This document shows, one piece after another, positions 594 through 35,980 of a DNA stretch of 36,978 nt. A program made the translations under genes and the position numbers. Under the pieces are notes generated by a model that was not told the origin of the DNA, did no database searches, and was given only the letters and a program-made list of their open reading frames with translations. How positions within the stretch are numbered: the stretch's first letter is position 1; the number at the start of each line of letters is the position of its first letter. The stretch is from a virus (lineage: Duplodnaviria > Caudoviricetes): positions 1 to 36,978 of IMG/VR virus record IMGVR_UViG_3300017653_000008; one strand, written 5' to 3'.

Positions 594-1217
594 ATGTCGT
601 TTCCGGCTGACCTGACATCTGTTCTTACCGGCGCAACCATGCATCAGTTGGCGCAATGGCGCCGCGGAGATCCGCCTTTGCTGACTCCCGAGCACGGCAA
701 CCGCCCCGAGGTGCTGTATTCCTTCCGTGATGTCGTAGCACTCCGCACGATCGTCAAGTTGCGGAGCCAGGTTCCCCTCCAGCGAATCCGGAAGGCATTT
801 GCATCGTTGCAGGACCTCGATCTGACCGACCATCCGTCGCGCTACACGCTGTTCACGGACGGAGACTCCGTCTTCTTGGTGGAGGGTGAAGAGGCAACTG
901 ACCTGGTCAAAAAGCCGGGGCAGCGAGTGCTCGTCACGCTTGACGACGTATTCCGACCATTCTTGAACTTCAGGGACGAGGAGGTCGTCGACTTCATTCA
1001 CCCCCGACCACGGTTGGAAGTGAGGGAGACACGCCTCGGAGGGTGGCCGACGATCATTGGGACTCGGGTTCCATACGATACTGTCGCAAACCTCGTCGCG
1101 ACCGGAGATGTTCCTGCAGATGCGGTGAGTGAGTACTTCCCCACCGTCGATCCTGGGGACGTTGACGATGCCGTCGATTTCGGCAAGCAGGTTGCGGACG
1201 TTCGGCGGCCGGCATGA
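594..1217 (+). CDS. vapB: VapB45-like antitoxin (MerR-like HTH + DUF433)
   Basis: SD GGAGGTG before ATG594. N-terminal LYSFRDVVALRTIVKLR...PLQRIRKA and C-terminal GGWPTIIGTRVP...EYFP (DUF433). ATGA overlap with the PIN gene. Confidence 0.85.
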   Translation: MSFPADLTSVLTGATMHQLAQWRRGDPPLLTPEHGNRPEVLYSFRDVVALRTIVKLRSQVPLQRIRKAFASLQDLDLTDHPSRYTLFTDGDSVFLVEGEEATDLVKKPGQRVLVTLDDVFRPFLNFRDEEVVDFIHPRPRLEVRETRLGGWPTIIGTRVPYDTVANLVATGDVPADAVSEYFPTVDPGDVDDAVDFGKQVADVRRPA

Positions 1218-1630
1218 AGCTGTTCCTCGACGAGAACATGAACCAGCGCCTCATCGAACATCTGTCATCCGTGTTCCGTCCACACGAGTTTGTCGGCGTG
1301 AATGACCTCGGCACCAAGGGGGCGGATGATGTCTCGTTATTCGGCAAAGTTGCAGCCGCTGGTTGCCACGTCTTCATCACAGGCGACCTGAGGCAGCTGT
1401 CTAGATTGAACGAGAGAGAGGCTTGCCGAGCAGCAGGCTTGCACTGGATAGGTGTGCACCAAGTTCACGCACCCGGATACCACGTAATTGCCGGACCAGC
1501 GTCAACCCTGGTGCACTCTCTTCCTTTTGCATTCGATGAGATGAAGACCGCGACCGCTCCGATGTTCTTCCAGCTCAGAAAGTCTGAGCGTCGAAGCTCC
1601 GAGGTATTTCATCGTCAAGGCGATCTGTGA
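1214..1630 (+). CDS. vapC: VapC45-like PIN-domain toxin
   Basis: MKLFLDEN..., GADDVSLF, FITGD motifs of PIN-like (Rv2019/DUF5615 type) proteins; coupled to the DUF433 gene. Confidence 0.85.
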   Translation: MKLFLDENMNQRLIEHLSSVFRPHEFVGVNDLGTKGADDVSLFGKVAAAGCHVFITGDLRQLSRLNEREACRAAGLHWIGVHQVHAPGYHVIAGPASTLVHSLPFAFDEMKTATAPMFFQLRKSERRSSEVFHRQGDL

Positions 1631-1654
1631 CATTTGACTAGGCATCATCAATCA

Positions 1655-1810
1655 CTACTCACACAGATGTTCGATGCTCGGTAGGGTTTGATCTGCGGGC
1701 CGGTGGAGCTGCGAGCTCGGGAAGCGCCGGCCCGCATCCAGCATCTCCGCGTGCTCAAGTATTCCCATCGCGCGAAGCAGAGACCGCACCCGTTGCTGCC
1801 GCTCATCCAT
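1655..1810 (-). CDS. Possible 51-aa hypothetical protein
   Basis: MDERQQRVRSLLRAMGILEHAEMLDAGRRFPSSQLHRPADQTLPSIEHLCE*; no SD, possibly leaderless; convergent with vapC. Confidence 0.25.
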   Translation of the reverse strand: MDERQQRVRSLLRAMGILEHAEMLDAGRRFPSSQLHRPADQTLPSIEHLCE

Positions 1811-1967
1811 ACCGGATTGGACGAGATCGCGGGACCAGGCGGTTCCATCCGAACGGCCCGGGATGCCCTATAGAGCCCTCACAGCATGTGGCGGCATGGG
1901 GTGAAAACGGACGCTTCGTTAGGCAAAAGCAATTTCCCGACCCCCTCCGCCATGTGATTGACTCCAC

Positions 1968-2048
1968 AACATCGCCGCCCATCCCCTGCGCGGCGATCCA
2001 GGCCCCGTCGGCACCCCCCGCATCCGCCGACGGGGCCTGCTTCTATCT
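1968..2048 (+). ncRNA. 6C-like small RNA (two hairpins with C-rich loops)
   Basis: ATCGCCGC-ccatcccctgc-GCGGCGAT (1971-1997), then 14-bp CAGGCCCCGTCGGC-accccccgcatcc-GCCGACGGGGCCTG (1999-2039) with six consecutive loop C's and a U-rich tail. Confidence 0.65.
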
Positions 2049-2089
2049 CAAGGGTCTACCGCGATCGCGGAAAATCCTGTAATCATTGG

Positions 2090-2201
2090 ACGCAGGTCCA
2101 GCACGTCCGAGCAGACAGGGGATGCTCGGAAGTCGCTGGACCCATTCACTTATGCCCCTGCGCTGGCAGTGCTCCGCCTCATCGGGAGGAAGCGGAGCAC
2201 C
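2090..2201 (-). ncRNA. Putative small RNA with anti-SD loops
   Basis: Minus-strand hairpins GUGCUCCGC-uuccucccgaugag-GCGGAGCAC (2169-2200) and GGUCCAGC..UCCGAGCA-uccccuguc-UGCUCGGA..GCUGGACC (2095-2142). Starts GGUG 7 nt after a GGGTAG element. Confidence 0.5.
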
Positions 2202-2280
2202 GAATCGGCTACCCCTCGGCGCGACACGTGCAGCCAGTTGCAGCCACCAGCAGTCCAGGACGGTGAGACCCCGCCGAAAT

Positions 2281-2368
2281 GCGAAAGCGCGCCCCGCCTC
2301 CAGCGTCGGGGAGGCGGGGCGCTCAAGGAGCCGCGGAGACCGAACAGGGGAAGGCCTCCACGACCACC
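2281..2368 (-). ncRNA. Putative small RNA, tandem copy 1
   Basis: GGUG start, hairpin with loop uuccccuguuc, then 13-bp terminator GCGCCCCGCCUCC/GGAGGCGGGGCGC and a U-containing tail. Confidence 0.6.
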
Positions 2369-2374
2369 AGGCAT

Positions 2375-2411
2375 ATCGAACAAAACCGACCGAGTGTTAC
2401 GCCTGTGTTAC
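2375..2411 (-). promoter_or_regulatory. GTAAC-N6-GTAAC-N18-GAT promoter (SigD-like, with direct repeat)
   Basis: GTTAC at 2396-2400 and 2407-2411 and ATC at 2375-2377 on the plus strand; conserved in copy 2. Confidence 0.55.
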
Positions 2412-2456
2412 AGAATCGTCGGATCGGCCTTCCGGCGGGCACCCGAACCCGTGAAC

Positions 2457-2548
2457 GCGAAGGCGCGCCCCGCCTCCGGCGTTCCGAGGGGAGGCGGGGC
2501 GCTTTAAGGACCGCAGGGACCGTTCGGGGGATGACCTCTGCAGTCACC
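2457..2548 (-). ncRNA. Putative small RNA, tandem copy 2
   Basis: GGUG start, stem with changed sequence but retained pairing, loop aucccccgaac, identical 13-bp terminator arms (2465-2477/2490-2502). Confidence 0.6.
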
Positions 2549-2554
2549 GGGTGT

Positions 2555-2590
2555 ATCGACAGAACAGACCGCGCGTTACGTACGTGTTAC
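2555..2590 (-). promoter_or_regulatory. GTAAC-N6-GTAAC-N17-GAT promoter (SigD-like, with direct repeat)
   Basis: GTTAC at 2575-2579 and 2586-2590 and ATC at 2555-2557 on the plus strand. Confidence 0.55.
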
Positions 2591-2609
2591 GAACATGCCG
2601 ATCGGCCTT

Positions 2610-3827
2610 CTAGTCCCAGTACAGGAAGGTGTTGCTCGCGCCGGCGAGCACGTTGCGCTCGTTCGCGGTCGTCGCCGCGTGATAGGCCTCGACCCACACC
2701 TGGTCGCCGTCGTGCAGCGTCGTCGAGAACGACAGACCCAGATCCTTCACCGTGCTGAGCCCCGATTGCGTGTTGATGGCGACCTGGCTGCCGTTGACCA
2801 TCAGACGGGCCCGGCGCTCGACGAAGACCACGCCGGTGTTGAACGTGACGCGGGCGGTGATCGCGGTCGCGCCGGTGCCATCGGCGATGAGGGCACCGCC
2901 GGATTCGACAGTGTCCGGGTAGCCGGAGCGCACGGTCCAGCCGGTGACTCGCGTCCAGGTGTTGCGACCCGGGTCCTGGGTGCCGACCTTGTCGACACCC
3001 ATCGCGACGAACGTGACCACCGTGGCGGGCGCGACCGCGGTCGGTGCGACCTCGGCGACCACAGTGCGGGTGTGCACCGGCGTCGGCGGCATGAGCGCAG
3101 CGGCGGGAACCTCGGCGACCAGGACTCGCGCGAGGACCGGGACGGCCGGGGCCAGCGCCACGGCCGTGACCTCGGCGACCAGGGCGCGGGTGTGCACCGG
3201 CGTCGATGGCATGAGCGCGGTGACCGTCGTCTCGGCGACCAGCGTCCGGGACAGGAGCACCGCCCCCGCGGCGTCGACATCGAGGTCGATCTCGACGACG
3301 AGCGACCGGGTGTGGACCACCACGGCCGGGATGCTCGCCTCGACCGCGACCTCGGCGACGAGGTGGCGGGTGAGTTCGTCGCCGAGCACAGGCAGCAACG
3401 CGCCCACCGGCACCTGCGCGGTCAACGCCGCGTACCGGATCGGCCAGGCCGGCAGCAGCGCGGCCGGCGCGGCCTCGACGGTGAGGGCGCGTTCGAGGAT
3501 CGGCACCACCATCGCCGGCAACTGTGCGTCGGCCTCGAGATCAACGGTCAATGCTGCGTAGCGGATCGGCCAGGCGGCCACCAACGCATCGACGTCGATC
3601 CGTACGGTCAGCGCGCGGACGACCACACCGACGATCATCGGCGGGATGCGCCCGGCAAGCGCGGTCGTCTCCGGCAGCCGCGGCCGTGGGGACACCATGG
3701 TGACCAGCTGCGGGCGCGCCGCGATCGTGACGCCGACGATTGGGCGCGGGGTCACCGTCGTGCTCGCGGCCGGCGCCGAGGCGGTCGACTCCGGCAGCGC
3801 CGGGCGCGGCGCGATCGAGGCGCCCAC
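2610..3827 (-). CDS. Minor tail / tail fibre protein with 20-aa repeats and C-terminal head domain
   Basis: Last gene of the tail operon; (L/V)VAEV...P repeats; beta-rich C-terminus (TWTRVTGWTVRSGYP...GDQVWVEAY). Confidence 0.75.
   Translation of the reverse strand: MGASIAPRPALPESTASAPAASTTVTPRPIVGVTIAARPQLVTMVSPRPRLPETTALAGRIPPMIVGVVVRALTVRIDVDALVAAWPIRYAALTVDLEADAQLPAMVVPILERALTVEAAPAALLPAWPIRYAALTAQVPVGALLPVLGDELTRHLVAEVAVEASIPAVVVHTRSLVVEIDLDVDAAGAVLLSRTLVAETTVTALMPSTPVHTRALVAEVTAVALAPAVPVLARVLVAEVPAAALMPPTPVHTRTVVAEVAPTAVAPATVVTFVAMGVDKVGTQDPGRNTWTRVTGWTVRSGYPDTVESGGALIADGTGATAITARVTFNTGVVFVERRARLMVNGSQVAINTQSGLSTVKDLGLSFSTTLHDGDQVWVEAYHAATTANERNVLAGASNTFLYWD
3051..3360. repeat. 60-bp periodic repeat within tail fibre gene
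   Basis: CTCG(G/A)CGAC at 3051, 3111, 3171, 3231, 3291 and 3351. Confidence 0.85.
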
Positions 3828-23965: not shown

Positions 23966-24473
23966 TCGCGCCGGCCTCCTCCTCGTCGTGGACCGCTGCA
24001 ATCAGTGCTGCCTCGAGCTGGCCGAGCATCGACTTGGCGTTGTCGTGCTCGGTGGTGGTGTCGGTGAGCTTGTCGAGGACTGCCGCCTGGCCGGTGTGCG
24101 CGTTCGTCTGCTCCCGCAGGTCTCGCGAGGGAATGAAGTCGAGTTGCGCCTCGACTTCGCGGCCTTCGCTTCCGCGGATCAGCGTCGACCACCCCTTCTT
24201 GCCTCGGAGTGTCGCCAGGATCGCAGCCTGCGACAGCTCGAGGATCTCCAGTGCGTTCTCCGCAGCGACGGCCTTGCGTGCCTTGAGGTCGATGACACGG
24301 GCTTCTGTGGCCTTCTTTGTCTTCGACCGGTCGAAACTCAGGTTCAGCCGATCCGCCCACCGAGACACCGTGCTCTGCGGCCGGCCCATCTCCTCTGCGA
24401 TCGCCCGCAGCGACATCCCCTGCTCATGCAGTTCGCGAAGGCGCCGGCTCTCCTCATCGGTCCACGCGGCCAT
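23898..24473 (-). CDS. terS: Terminase small subunit (N-terminal HTH)
   Basis: LRELHEQGMSLRAIAEEMGRPQSTVSRW HTH; overlaps the terL start. Confidence 0.75.
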   Translation of the reverse strand: MAAWTDEESRRLRELHEQGMSLRAIAEEMGRPQSTVSRWADRLNLSFDRSKTKKATEARVIDLKARKAVAAENALEILELSQAAILATLRGKKGWSTLIRGSEGREVEAQLDFIPSRDLREQTNAHTGQAAVLDKLTDTTTEHDNAKSMLGQLEAALIAAVHDEEEAGASGDPGQAVDLPEAGPLDCDSER

Positions 24474-25731: not shown

Positions 25732-25809
25732 TCAGGTGGCGGCGAGGCTGAGTGCTGCGACGGAGATGATGAGCACCCAGGCGGTGAGGACCGTCGGGAG
25801 GCGGGTCAC
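25732..25809 (-). CDS. 25-aa single-TM peptide
   Basis: MTRLPTVLTAWVLIISVAALSLAAT*; GTGA overlap with the upstream stop. Confidence 0.45.
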   Translation of the reverse strand: MTRLPTVLTAWVLIISVAALSLAAT

Positions 25810-26438
25810 GGCCTGCGCTCGACGATCTCGGTGTACGGCGAGAAGTTCGACGACGCCTTGCTCGCTGCGAAGGGGCCGCGGTTGCCGTTTGCGTACTCCC
25901 TCTGCCACTCGTTTCCGTGGTCGTCACGGCGAAGGAAGTAGCCACCGGTCCGGTCTCGGACGCGCTTCACGTCGGCGGGGACAGCGCGGAGGTCGTTCCA
26001 CCGGCGGGGCTTGCGGTCCCATTCGTCGGCGGGGTCGGCTCCGGGATCGCCGTAGCCGTTTTGGGGCCGCGGCGCGACCTCGTACGACGCGAGGAAAGTC
26101 CCGGCCTTCGCTTCGGCCGCGCACTGTTCCTGCGTGATGCCGAGGACCTTCTCCTGGTATTCGGCGGCTTCGAGCGGGTTGGTGATGAGGTCGTCCCGCT
26201 CGAGCTTCGCGAGGACAGCGCGCATGGCAGTCCGGTCGGCATCCTCGACGTGATGTCTGGTCCCACGCGCGGCCCAAAACACCTGGAGGAGTTCGTCGAT
26301 GCGCTTCTCGTCGGCCTGCTCGCGCTCGAGGTTGTCGGCCTCGCTGCGGATCCGCGCTACACCCGCATACAAGCCGCGCTTGTTGAGCCAGTCGGCGACG
26401 TCCCGCAGCAGCTCCGGTGTGATGTCGATGTCGGTCAC
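25806..26438 (-). CDS. Hypothetical protein
   Basis: 210 aa; coupled by overlaps at both ends; W.DL..VP..V..V.D..G motif. Confidence 0.7.
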   Translation of the reverse strand: MTDIDITPELLRDVADWLNKRGLYAGVARIRSEADNLEREQADEKRIDELLQVFWAARGTRHHVEDADRTAMRAVLAKLERDDLITNPLEAAEYQEKVLGITQEQCAAEAKAGTFLASYEVAPRPQNGYGDPGADPADEWDRKPRRWNDLRAVPADVKRVRDRTGGYFLRRDDHGNEWQREYANGNRGPFAASKASSNFSPYTEIVERRP

Positions 26439-26575
26439 TTCTCCCCCTGGAGGTTTTCGATGGTGCCGATGGGTGGCGTGTAGGTGGTGGGGTGGCAGGC
26501 TCCGGCGATGAGTCCGCCGGCGAACAGTGCGGCGAGGAGCAGGGACGCCCGGATCCGGGTCCTGGGCGCGGTCAC
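26435..26575 (-). CDS. 46-aa putative lipoprotein
   Basis: MTAPRTRIRASLLLAALFAGGLIAGA-C: basic n-region, h-region and lipobox-like Cys; GTGA overlaps at both ends. Confidence 0.5.
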   Translation of the reverse strand: MTAPRTRIRASLLLAALFAGGLIAGACHPTTYTPPIGTIENLQGEK

Positions 26576-35464: not shown

Positions 35465-35779
35465 CTATGCAGCAGTGTTGCGAACAACGGGCAACACTTG
35501 GGGCACAAAAAGAGAGCCTGCGGGCGCATCGAGAACCCTTTCGATGGCGCGAGCGGTATGCGGCAAGCAGGTGTTCCTATGCCCGGACATCAGGTGGCCG
35601 ATGAGGGACCGGGAGCACCCAGCAGGCTTGTCGCCGCGCATAGCCTTCGCCTTCTTGAGCTCCTTGTCCGTTGCCGCCGCAAGGGAACGGACCGTGAATC
35701 CGCGATGCTCGACGTACTGGCTGAACGCCTTCGAACTGATGAGCTTCACCCAGAACCTCCCGTCTGTGTAGTGCTGCAT
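35465..35779 (-). CDS. cro: Cro-like HTH protein
   Basis: T.RSLA...SRSLIGHL.SG.R.TC....A.AIE..L..P.GSLF; divergent from repressor; SD CAGGGGA. Confidence 0.85.
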   Translation of the reverse strand: MQHYTDGRFWVKLISSKAFSQYVEHRGFTVRSLAAATDKELKKAKAMRGDKPAGCSRSLIGHLMSGHRNTCLPHTARAIERVLDAPAGSLFVPQVLPVVRNTAA

Positions 35780-35797
35780 TTCCCCTGCCTTTCGAAG

Positions 35798-35980
35798 TGT
35801 AGACGGTTTGTTGTGTGTTGTGTGCGACAGTACAACATGTAGACGGTGGTGTCTACAAGCCGGAAGTCTGTCGAGGCACAGAAGCTCCAGGTTGCTGTCC
35901 GTTGCGCCAGGTAATTTGTAGACACGTTGTCTACACAAGAAGTTGGGCAACACCGACAGCTACAGGCAGGGTTCGTAGAC
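35798..35980. promoter_or_regulatory. Operator palindromes TGTAGAC-N5/6-GTCTACA
   Basis: Full sites 35838-35857 and 35917-35935; half-sites at 35798 and 35975. Confidence 0.8.
35827..35855 (-). promoter_or_regulatory. Early lytic promoter TAGACA-N17-TACTGT
   Basis: SigA-like -35/-10 with 17-bp spacer upstream of cro. Confidence 0.65.

Follow-up and report, generated by a model that had tools for sequence, protein, structure and literature searches.

The question raised by this locus is what a dense cluster of hairpins is doing in a phage genome, in the gap between a toxin-antitoxin (TA) module and the end of the tail genes. The original prediction had read the cluster as four 6C-like small RNAs with anti-Shine-Dalgarno loops, acting on translation during lysogeny. 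Our analysis indicates that it is a phage-borne cassette of four hairpin units with conserved C-rich loops, which likely act as small regulatory RNAs.

The window, by which we mean the whole stretch of DNA analysed, comprises 36,978 bases and is the entire virus record. Siphovirus genes for head and tail are present, along with a cro-like gene and genes for a lysin, an anti-repressor and a replication protein. A longer record, which is 100% identical over window positions 4518-36978, runs on into a tyrosine integrase. Thus the phage is temperate, in line with the lysogeny setting assumed originally. Its LtfC-like protein shares 83% identity with one from Rhodococcus zopfii and its antitoxin 74% with one in a Rhodococcus genome; judged by these identities the host genus is likely Rhodococcus. 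The cassette and its surroundings are composed as follows:

594-1217, plus strand: DUF433/MerR-like antitoxin of the TA module (Pfam PF04255)
1214-1630, plus strand: PIN-domain toxin of the TA module (Pfam PF18478)
1659-1674, minus strand: SOS-box-like site
1953-1968, plus strand: putative CRP/GlxR-like box, TGTGA-N6-CCACA, at the 5' end of unit 1
1968-2048, plus strand: unit 1, two hairpins and a short U-rich tail, 6C-like in architecture
1971-1997, plus strand: hairpin 1 of unit 1, loop CCAUCCCCUGC
1999-2039, plus strand: hairpin 2 of unit 1, C-rich loop
2090-2202, likely minus strand: unit 2, hairpins A and B, the least certain unit
2095-2142, likely minus strand: hairpin B of unit 2, loop UCCCCUGUC
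2167-2202, likely minus strand: hairpin A of unit 2, loop UUCCUCCC
2281-2368, minus strand: unit 3, F6-like long hairpin and terminator-type hairpin
2289-2322, minus strand: terminator-type hairpin of unit 3
2329-2365, minus strand: long hairpin of unit 3, loop UUCCCCUGUUC
2375-2400, minus strand: SigD-type promoter match of unit 3, GTAACA-N16-CGAT
2457-2548, minus strand: unit 4, F6-like long hairpin and terminator-type hairpin
2465-2502, minus strand: terminator-type hairpin of unit 4
2509-2545, minus strand: long hairpin of unit 4, F6-type loop core CCCCCGA
2555-2579, minus strand: SigD-type promoter match of unit 4, GTAACG-N15-CGAT
2610-3827, minus strand: minor tail protein (phrog_837), last gene of the tail block; the cassette comes after its stop

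The place of the cassette, after the last tail gene, is one at which relatives carry accessory genes (DUF2637, DUF2510, DUF488, IrrE-like). Where the window has the DUF433/PIN TA module (537-1660), relatives carry a small Cys-rich gene (phrog_12017), with the breakpoint at about 1660. The SOS-box-like site, called with what we take to be the SOS-box consensus, is kept in L038, L089 and L097 directly before this gene and is likely a leftover promoter element of it, the gene having been replaced by the TA module. The antitoxin gene is accessory cargo and lies outside the RNA cassette. The family of the small Cys-rich gene was matched in 134 of the 401 family genomes.

Strand, fold and conservation of the four units

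The proposed arrangement of eight hairpins in four two-hairpin units was recovered in place, and the units fold far better than shuffles on the strand assigned to them (z-scores of -8.7, -4.5, -4.8 and -3.0 for units 1 to 4). When hairpins with a stem of 8 bp or more and CCCC within the loop were counted, positions 1965-2600 contained 6. None of 300 dinucleotide shuffles reached this number (1.18 +/- 1.05 hairpins), and the 54 other 636-nt tiles of the window had at most 2 each. The gap has no credible protein gene: GC content is flat over the codon positions of the six long ORFs checked, whereas the tail-fibre and TA genes differ in this respect. An Rfam scan of the window at gathering level gave no match, and scans of the cluster gave neither a sigma-70 promoter nor a U-tailed terminator. 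Two metatranscriptome runs (X16 and X17) include short pieces of the region as contigs, which carry no information on transcript ends or strand, in both cases outside units 3 and 4; the X16 contigs also cover structural genes.

For units 1, 3 and 4 the strand is settled, with the C-rich loops exposed, since G-U cells far outnumber A-C cells in the unit alignments (33:1 in 22 copies of the SigD type, 15:1 in a further alignment and 12:2 in 8 copies of unit 1). For unit 2 the minus strand is only likely: taken as a whole the unit has its better fold there in 5 of 6 copies, but for hairpin B by itself the plus strand gives the better fold in 4 of 5. The loop seeds are cheap to open, at a computed 0.1-1.9 kcal/mol. 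Across homologues the loops are conserved relative to the stems, and the stems covary. The hairpins are no dispersed host REP-like repeat, as a DNA search of 41 and 27 genomes found no dispersed copies: the 41-genome genus of G001 gave chance matches only, and among the 27 genomes G258 had 5 matches, all in phage-like or integrase-bearing regions, with 0-2 weak ones in the 26 others.

Unit 1 shows two adjacent hairpins with C-rich loops as in 6C, which units 2-4 do only loosely. It aligns over the whole Rfam 6C model (RF01066) but reaches 24.2 bits against a gathering threshold of 47, while units 2-4 gave no match to this model at E up to 10 and units 3 and 4 are F6-like. None of the units is thus a member of Rfam 6C, and 6C as the family of all four is not supported. 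All five host genomes tested have a separate 6C above the cut-off (73-85 bits). The alignment of 8 unit-1 copies has 96.8% of its cells paired; both sides have changed in 7 of its 20 pairs (reached in 0 of 500 shuffles). Unit 1 belongs to a two-hairpin family of syntenic host loci and mobile DNA, found near IS, Fic, RelA/SpoT and very large ORFs. Model R2, built for this type, has relatives in 18 of the 27 genus genomes. Since it places hairpin 2 one column off, this tally is based chiefly on sequence and on hairpin 1, and copies may have been missed; the pairs were recounted with the right structure. When 23 of the 41 R2 matches were refolded singly, most folded into two hairpins, the first with a C-rich loop. 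A TANNNT box immediately precedes several of the host copies. Unit 1 of the window is without it and has only the CRP-like box, for which we presumed the consensus of CRP/GlxR; the left half of the box is kept in 5 of 5 close copies, though the upstream DNA differs in 2 of them. A host two-hairpin family with CUCCUCCCC loops lies beside an amino-acid permease gene (L099, L103, L107, L109, L171, L172 and L174); two copies are present in G143, and Rfam gave no match.

Unit 2 is the weakest of the four. Its hairpin A is replaced by a non-homologous one in 2 of 6 copies. The loop of hairpin B is kept on diverged stems in L038, L089 and L092 (five copies in all), and this hairpin tolerates frame-shifting indels, the distances being 21, 22 and 23 nt between close copies; homologues of the unit differ by indels of 1-2 nt. 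Unit 1 and hairpin B are adjacent in all 6 close copies. A promoter-like element had been proposed for each of the three minus units. Before units 3 and 4 it matches the SigD consensus, but before unit 2 there is no recognisable full promoter. The proposed GGUG start of the minus units was not upheld either, as homologues have GGCG, AGUG or GUCG.

Units 3 and 4 are a tandem duplication of about 178 bp (176-180), 72-90% alike, and to this extent the description of the units as having largely different stem sequences had to be corrected. The SigD consensus of M. abscessus is given as GTAACA/G-N16-CGAT (PMC13537577); that of C. glutamicum, where SigD governs cell-envelope genes, matches it (PMC6338062). 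GTAACR-N16/15-CGAT has only 2 matches in the window (0.23 expected by chance; 2 of 100 shuffles reach 2). Unit 4 has a spacer one base short, which is N16 in the other five close copies. A second GTAACAC upstream of unit 3 (2405-2411), which we took for a possible GlnR/MtrA-type repeat, was dropped as an element: it is absent from 3 of 4 other close copies.

The motif at units 3 and 4 is conserved in the 22 SigD-type copies, in which the loop core is 97% and the promoter boxes are 92-93% conserved, compared with 39% for the spacer. Of the cells in this alignment 96.1% are paired, and 8 of 15 pairs change on both sides. Cells with both sides changed number 35 versus 10.9 in shuffles (0 of 500), whereby covariation among related sequences can exceed shuffles even without structure; in the 6 closest copies alone it is weaker (17 of 500).

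Relatives in host genomes and proviruses

Rfam F6 (RF01791) is present above its cut-off in 5 of 5 host genomes (51-59 bits), and all five loci have the same promoter motif, one long hairpin and a ACCCCCGAC loop, the seed letters of F6 being taken from these matches. Model R3, which was trained without F6, finds all five at 36-45 bits. It matches in 27 of 27 genus genomes, 15 of which supplied training sequences, and in 33 of 151 family genomes, where most of the 24 matches listed have the F6-type loop. Rfam F6 itself (gathering threshold 46 bits) has no match in window positions 1600-2700 at E up to 10, nor in 15 loci that include the host paralogues. Because model R3 finds host F6 and the layout is shared, yet Rfam gives no match, we call units 3 and 4 F6-like without counting them as members of Rfam F6. 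They have the SigD-type motif, a SigD- or SigF-type promoter being a trait of F6, and they lie in the cargo region of the phage, the host F6 locus being elsewhere. The core CCCCCGA is on the long hairpin of unit 4 and of four close copies but not of unit 3, whose loop is that of units 1 and 2 (UCCCCUG).

Model R1, trained on 6 phage-type copies, has matches in 21 of the 27 genus genomes at E up to 0.01. Several weak ones are plain terminators; refolding revealed among the matches a single-hairpin host RNA with the same promoter motif, a ACCCCCGAC-type loop and a shared locus. In the two loci annotated, this unnamed RNA lies beside an RNase H/phosphatase gene; in two it is close to rnpB. This RNA and a two-hairpin paralogue in the neighbourhood of crcB/pgm/tmRNA are the nearest host kin of units 3 and 4. 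Between phage and core-host copies, identity is 95% in the loop core, 93% in the -35 and 92% in the -10 box, 58-61% in the stems and 25% in the spacer.

Some details of these host loci may be recorded. The RNA near the RNase H/phosphatase gene (L122, L125, L128, L130-L133, L136 and L141, about 1500-1590; e.g. G206:C1:3283169-3283254) consists of one hairpin with a U tail behind a SigD-type promoter; it has no Rfam match and is separate from the F6 of the same genome. The SigD-type paralogue near crcB/pgm/TetR/tmRNA (L143, L139, L119 and L120, in G258, G068, G293 and G324) has a C-rich second loop as well and, among the matches listed, occurs in genomes without the core paralogue. A further RNA-like unit, about 100 nt long and preceded by a SigD-type motif, lies near the small Cys-rich gene of L059, L061 and L068 (about 2145-2300); it has C-rich stretches and a different fold.

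Cassettes of varying composition were found in related proviruses. The metagenome locus L038 has three units. One, of the 3/4 type, comes after the tail gene; beyond other cargo there are a diverged copy of unit 2 and then unit 1. Next come an SOS-box-like site and the small Cys-rich gene, in whose place the window has the TA module. Contigs of a landfill run have the same block and breakpoint. Genome G258, reached via the small Cys-rich gene, carries the cassette on four contigs, C232 with five units and C183, C199 and C75, which are at least three distinct copies as C75 may continue C183 or C199. Two unit-1-type RNAs stand in tandem in each of the proviruses G409 and G410. In G238, four unit-1-type matches and one of the 3/4 type fall within about 6.5 kb of an accessory island. 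Unit number and order vary between relatives, which have reshuffled cassettes of two to five units among accessory genes. The G406 record is without a cassette and ends in tail genes. As a side observation, the island at L206:4900-11400 (G238:C1:913000-928000) has a transposase and a P63C gene and at least five C-rich-loop units, one of them with three hairpins.

Neither GenBank phages nor PLSDB plasmids matched the cassette or two homologous units in any convincing way, and viral contigs scanned with the tail C-terminus, LtfC and the antitoxin gave no relatives. A scan of viral contigs with the promoter pattern returned 13 loci, and the 9 examined have no unit-like hairpin downstream. L039-L045, whose LtfC is more distantly related, have neither a SigD motif nor a model match within 5 kb.

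Possible function and its alternatives

The reading that we favour, and consider rather probable, is that the four units are host-derived sRNA genes whose C-rich loops repress G-rich leaders and of which the F6-like pair is switched on by SigD. M. tuberculosis 6C is described as binding G-rich leaders via its C-rich loops without chaperones (PMC6486639), and M. smegmatis F6 as having a SigD-consensus promoter and repressing MSMEG_4640 via an 8-nt loop seed (PMC8583896). By analogy the units are likely trans-acting repressors: the exposed loops would pair with G-rich mRNA leaders, presumably chaperone-free as for 6C and F6, and translation of mainly host targets would be repressed. The loops are complementary to G-rich leaders (CAGGGGA, UCGGGGG) and not to the canonical GGAGG. 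In the lysogen, units 3 and 4 would be transcribed in a SigD-dependent manner and co-induced with the SigD regulon upon envelope stress. After the duplication unit 4 would have kept the F6-type loop CCCCCGA and unit 3 would have taken the UCCCCUG of units 1 and 2, by which a second set of targets could come under SigD control. The analysis did not find a host target, and one candidate for an F6-type target, rpf, was rejected: TCGGGGG, the F6-type complement, is in 0 of 15 regions (15 of 21 rpf genes) within 330 nt upstream of the rpf domain. Two groups of rpf paralogues are preceded by a conserved leader stem (CCCCGCGGG ... GAGGGG; L234-L242), a possible cis-regulatory RNA.

A candidate target within the phage is the following:

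35465-35779, minus strand: cro-like gene (phrog_14639) at the head of the early operon; its product resembles Cro of Gordonia and Mycobacterium phages
35780-35790, minus strand: ribosome-binding region of cro, rich in G; the loops of units 1-3 are complementary to it over 8-10 nt

The cassette could thus serve mainly to silence the cro of the phage itself, along with similar leaders in incoming phages, and SigD stress would then lock in lysogeny. Among 39 hand-picked starts cro comes first for units 1 and 2 and second, in a tie with the first, for unit 3; among 56 automatic gene calls its ranks for the three units are 2, 2 and 3. The computed duplexes have -17 to -19 kcal/mol over 8-10 nt at an opening cost of 4.0, and the motif precedes the start in only 4 of 487 genes of the fetched loci. 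However, this ranking is post hoc and concerns one phage, unit 4 has no match to the site, and for the two loops carried by provirus G409 the cro of that provirus ranks 17 and 24 of 71. In G409 and G410 several starts of late genes are likewise preceded by CAGGGG[AG], and a 91%-identical cro (L277) lacks the site, although this record cannot show co-variation as it stops before the right arm. In G410 no cro was found. A search with phrog_14639 gave weak matches only. We regard this role as unlikely. The same holds for its wider form, in which host F6-/6C-type RNAs were captured, one was re-seeded and SigD-wired, and envelope stress would silence cro via three redundant loops, making the locus a swappable-cassette lysis-lysogeny switch.

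Further sites were seen in the window. A 10-nt loop-complementary site lies early in the terminase small subunit gene (24413-24423, minus), and another lies in the ribosome-binding region of gene 25806-26438 (26441-26449, minus). Repeated GTAGAC/GTCTAC half-sites between cro and a divergent ORF (35790-35960) are likely repressor operators and are kept in L277.

Another reading is that the units are decoys or sponges, with hairpin B read on plus so that its G-rich loop binds unit 1 or C-rich RNAs of the host. The better plus-strand fold of hairpin B would fit this, as would its constant adjacency to unit 1 and the complementarity of its plus-strand loop to unit 1's loop (inverted repeat I9). 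Yet a plus transcript would have to pass the terminator-type hairpin of unit 1, the whole of unit 2 prefers minus, and the wobble bias fixes units 1, 3 and 4 on the strand that exposes their C-rich loops; on balance we find the sponge reading improbable.

The variable number and order of the units might also be expected of stacked terminators or of non-functional hitch-hikers in a recombination-prone cargo region. Consistent with this, the arms of the second hairpins of units 3 and 4 recur as lone terminator-type hairpins in 4 unrelated viral contigs. Terminators, however, need neither a conserved 11-nt loop nor a dedicated promoter; here the promoter boxes and the loop core are kept while the spacer drifts, and the genomes searched by DNA hold no dispersed copies. 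There is in our view little chance that this explains the cassette. That the region encodes a type I toxin-antitoxin pair or short peptides, for which short ORFs across unit 2 in the window (2048-2149) and in L038 with a few synonymous-looking differences could speak, is very improbable given the frame shifts inside the hairpin and the flat codon-position GC.

If expressed as host-derived repressors of G-rich leaders, the units would offer prophages a route to tune host or phage translation without a protein. With two units F6-like behind SigD promoter matches, a stress circuit of the host would gain RNAs from the prophage that silence translation. The loop swap that arose naturally between units 3 and 4 lends itself to testing seed specificity.

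Comparison with known regulatory RNAs

In the sources cited here F6 and 6C appear as host regulators at fixed chromosomal loci. The phages of this study carry, duplicate, reshuffle and re-seed such units. Two kinds of RNA that Rfam lacks came to light as well: a host RNA resembling F6 and a two-hairpin family in multiple copies. A search at the level of titles and abstracts, mostly outside subscription journals, found no phage array of F6- or 6C-type RNAs. Prophage sRNAs are described from enterobacteria, and tandem sibling sRNAs with anti-Shine-Dalgarno loops from chromosomes (PMC5362039).

Closest to units 3 and 4 is F6/SfdS (RF01791; ncRv10243), with its SigD-consensus promoter (as stated for M. 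smegmatis F6, PMC8583896), its one long hairpin and the loop core CCCCCGA of unit 4. Units 3 and 4 differ in an 11-nt loop on different stems, in the added terminator-type hairpin and, in unit 3, in the loop seed; F6 is reported to lie between fadA2 and fadE5 (10.1101/2020.07.15.204107), whereas they are located in a phage. The unnamed host F6-like RNA shares the promoter motif, the 11-nt loop and the CCCCCGA core with them but is a single hairpin with a U tail, in single copy at a core locus.

6C/B11 resembles unit 1 in its two adjacent C-rich-loop hairpins and in the alignment over the whole 6C model, and the mode of pairing described for 6C (PMC6486639) is likely the same. Unit 1, however, has the loop UCCCCUG instead of a run of six C and is mobile and multi-copy. 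Xanthomonas sX13 shares the loop of unit 1, its Rfam match being weak (16.5 bits against a cut-off of 50).

Neisseria NmsRA/B and Listeria LhrC (PMC5362039), and likewise sX13, are tandem or multi-copy sRNAs with anti-Shine-Dalgarno or C-rich loops. They are chromosomal and each of one family, while the phage cassette mixes two or three families, and the likeness is one of layout. The CcsR/cuckoo arrays of Rhodobacter are reportedly further arrays of sibling sRNAs. Among phage RNAs, lambda OOP and P22 sar are cis-antisense RNAs that steer lysogeny. If the match to cro is real, the cassette would share with them the silencing of a lytic regulator after transcription; unlike these cis-antisense RNAs, its units lie 33 kb from cro and are likely host-derived.
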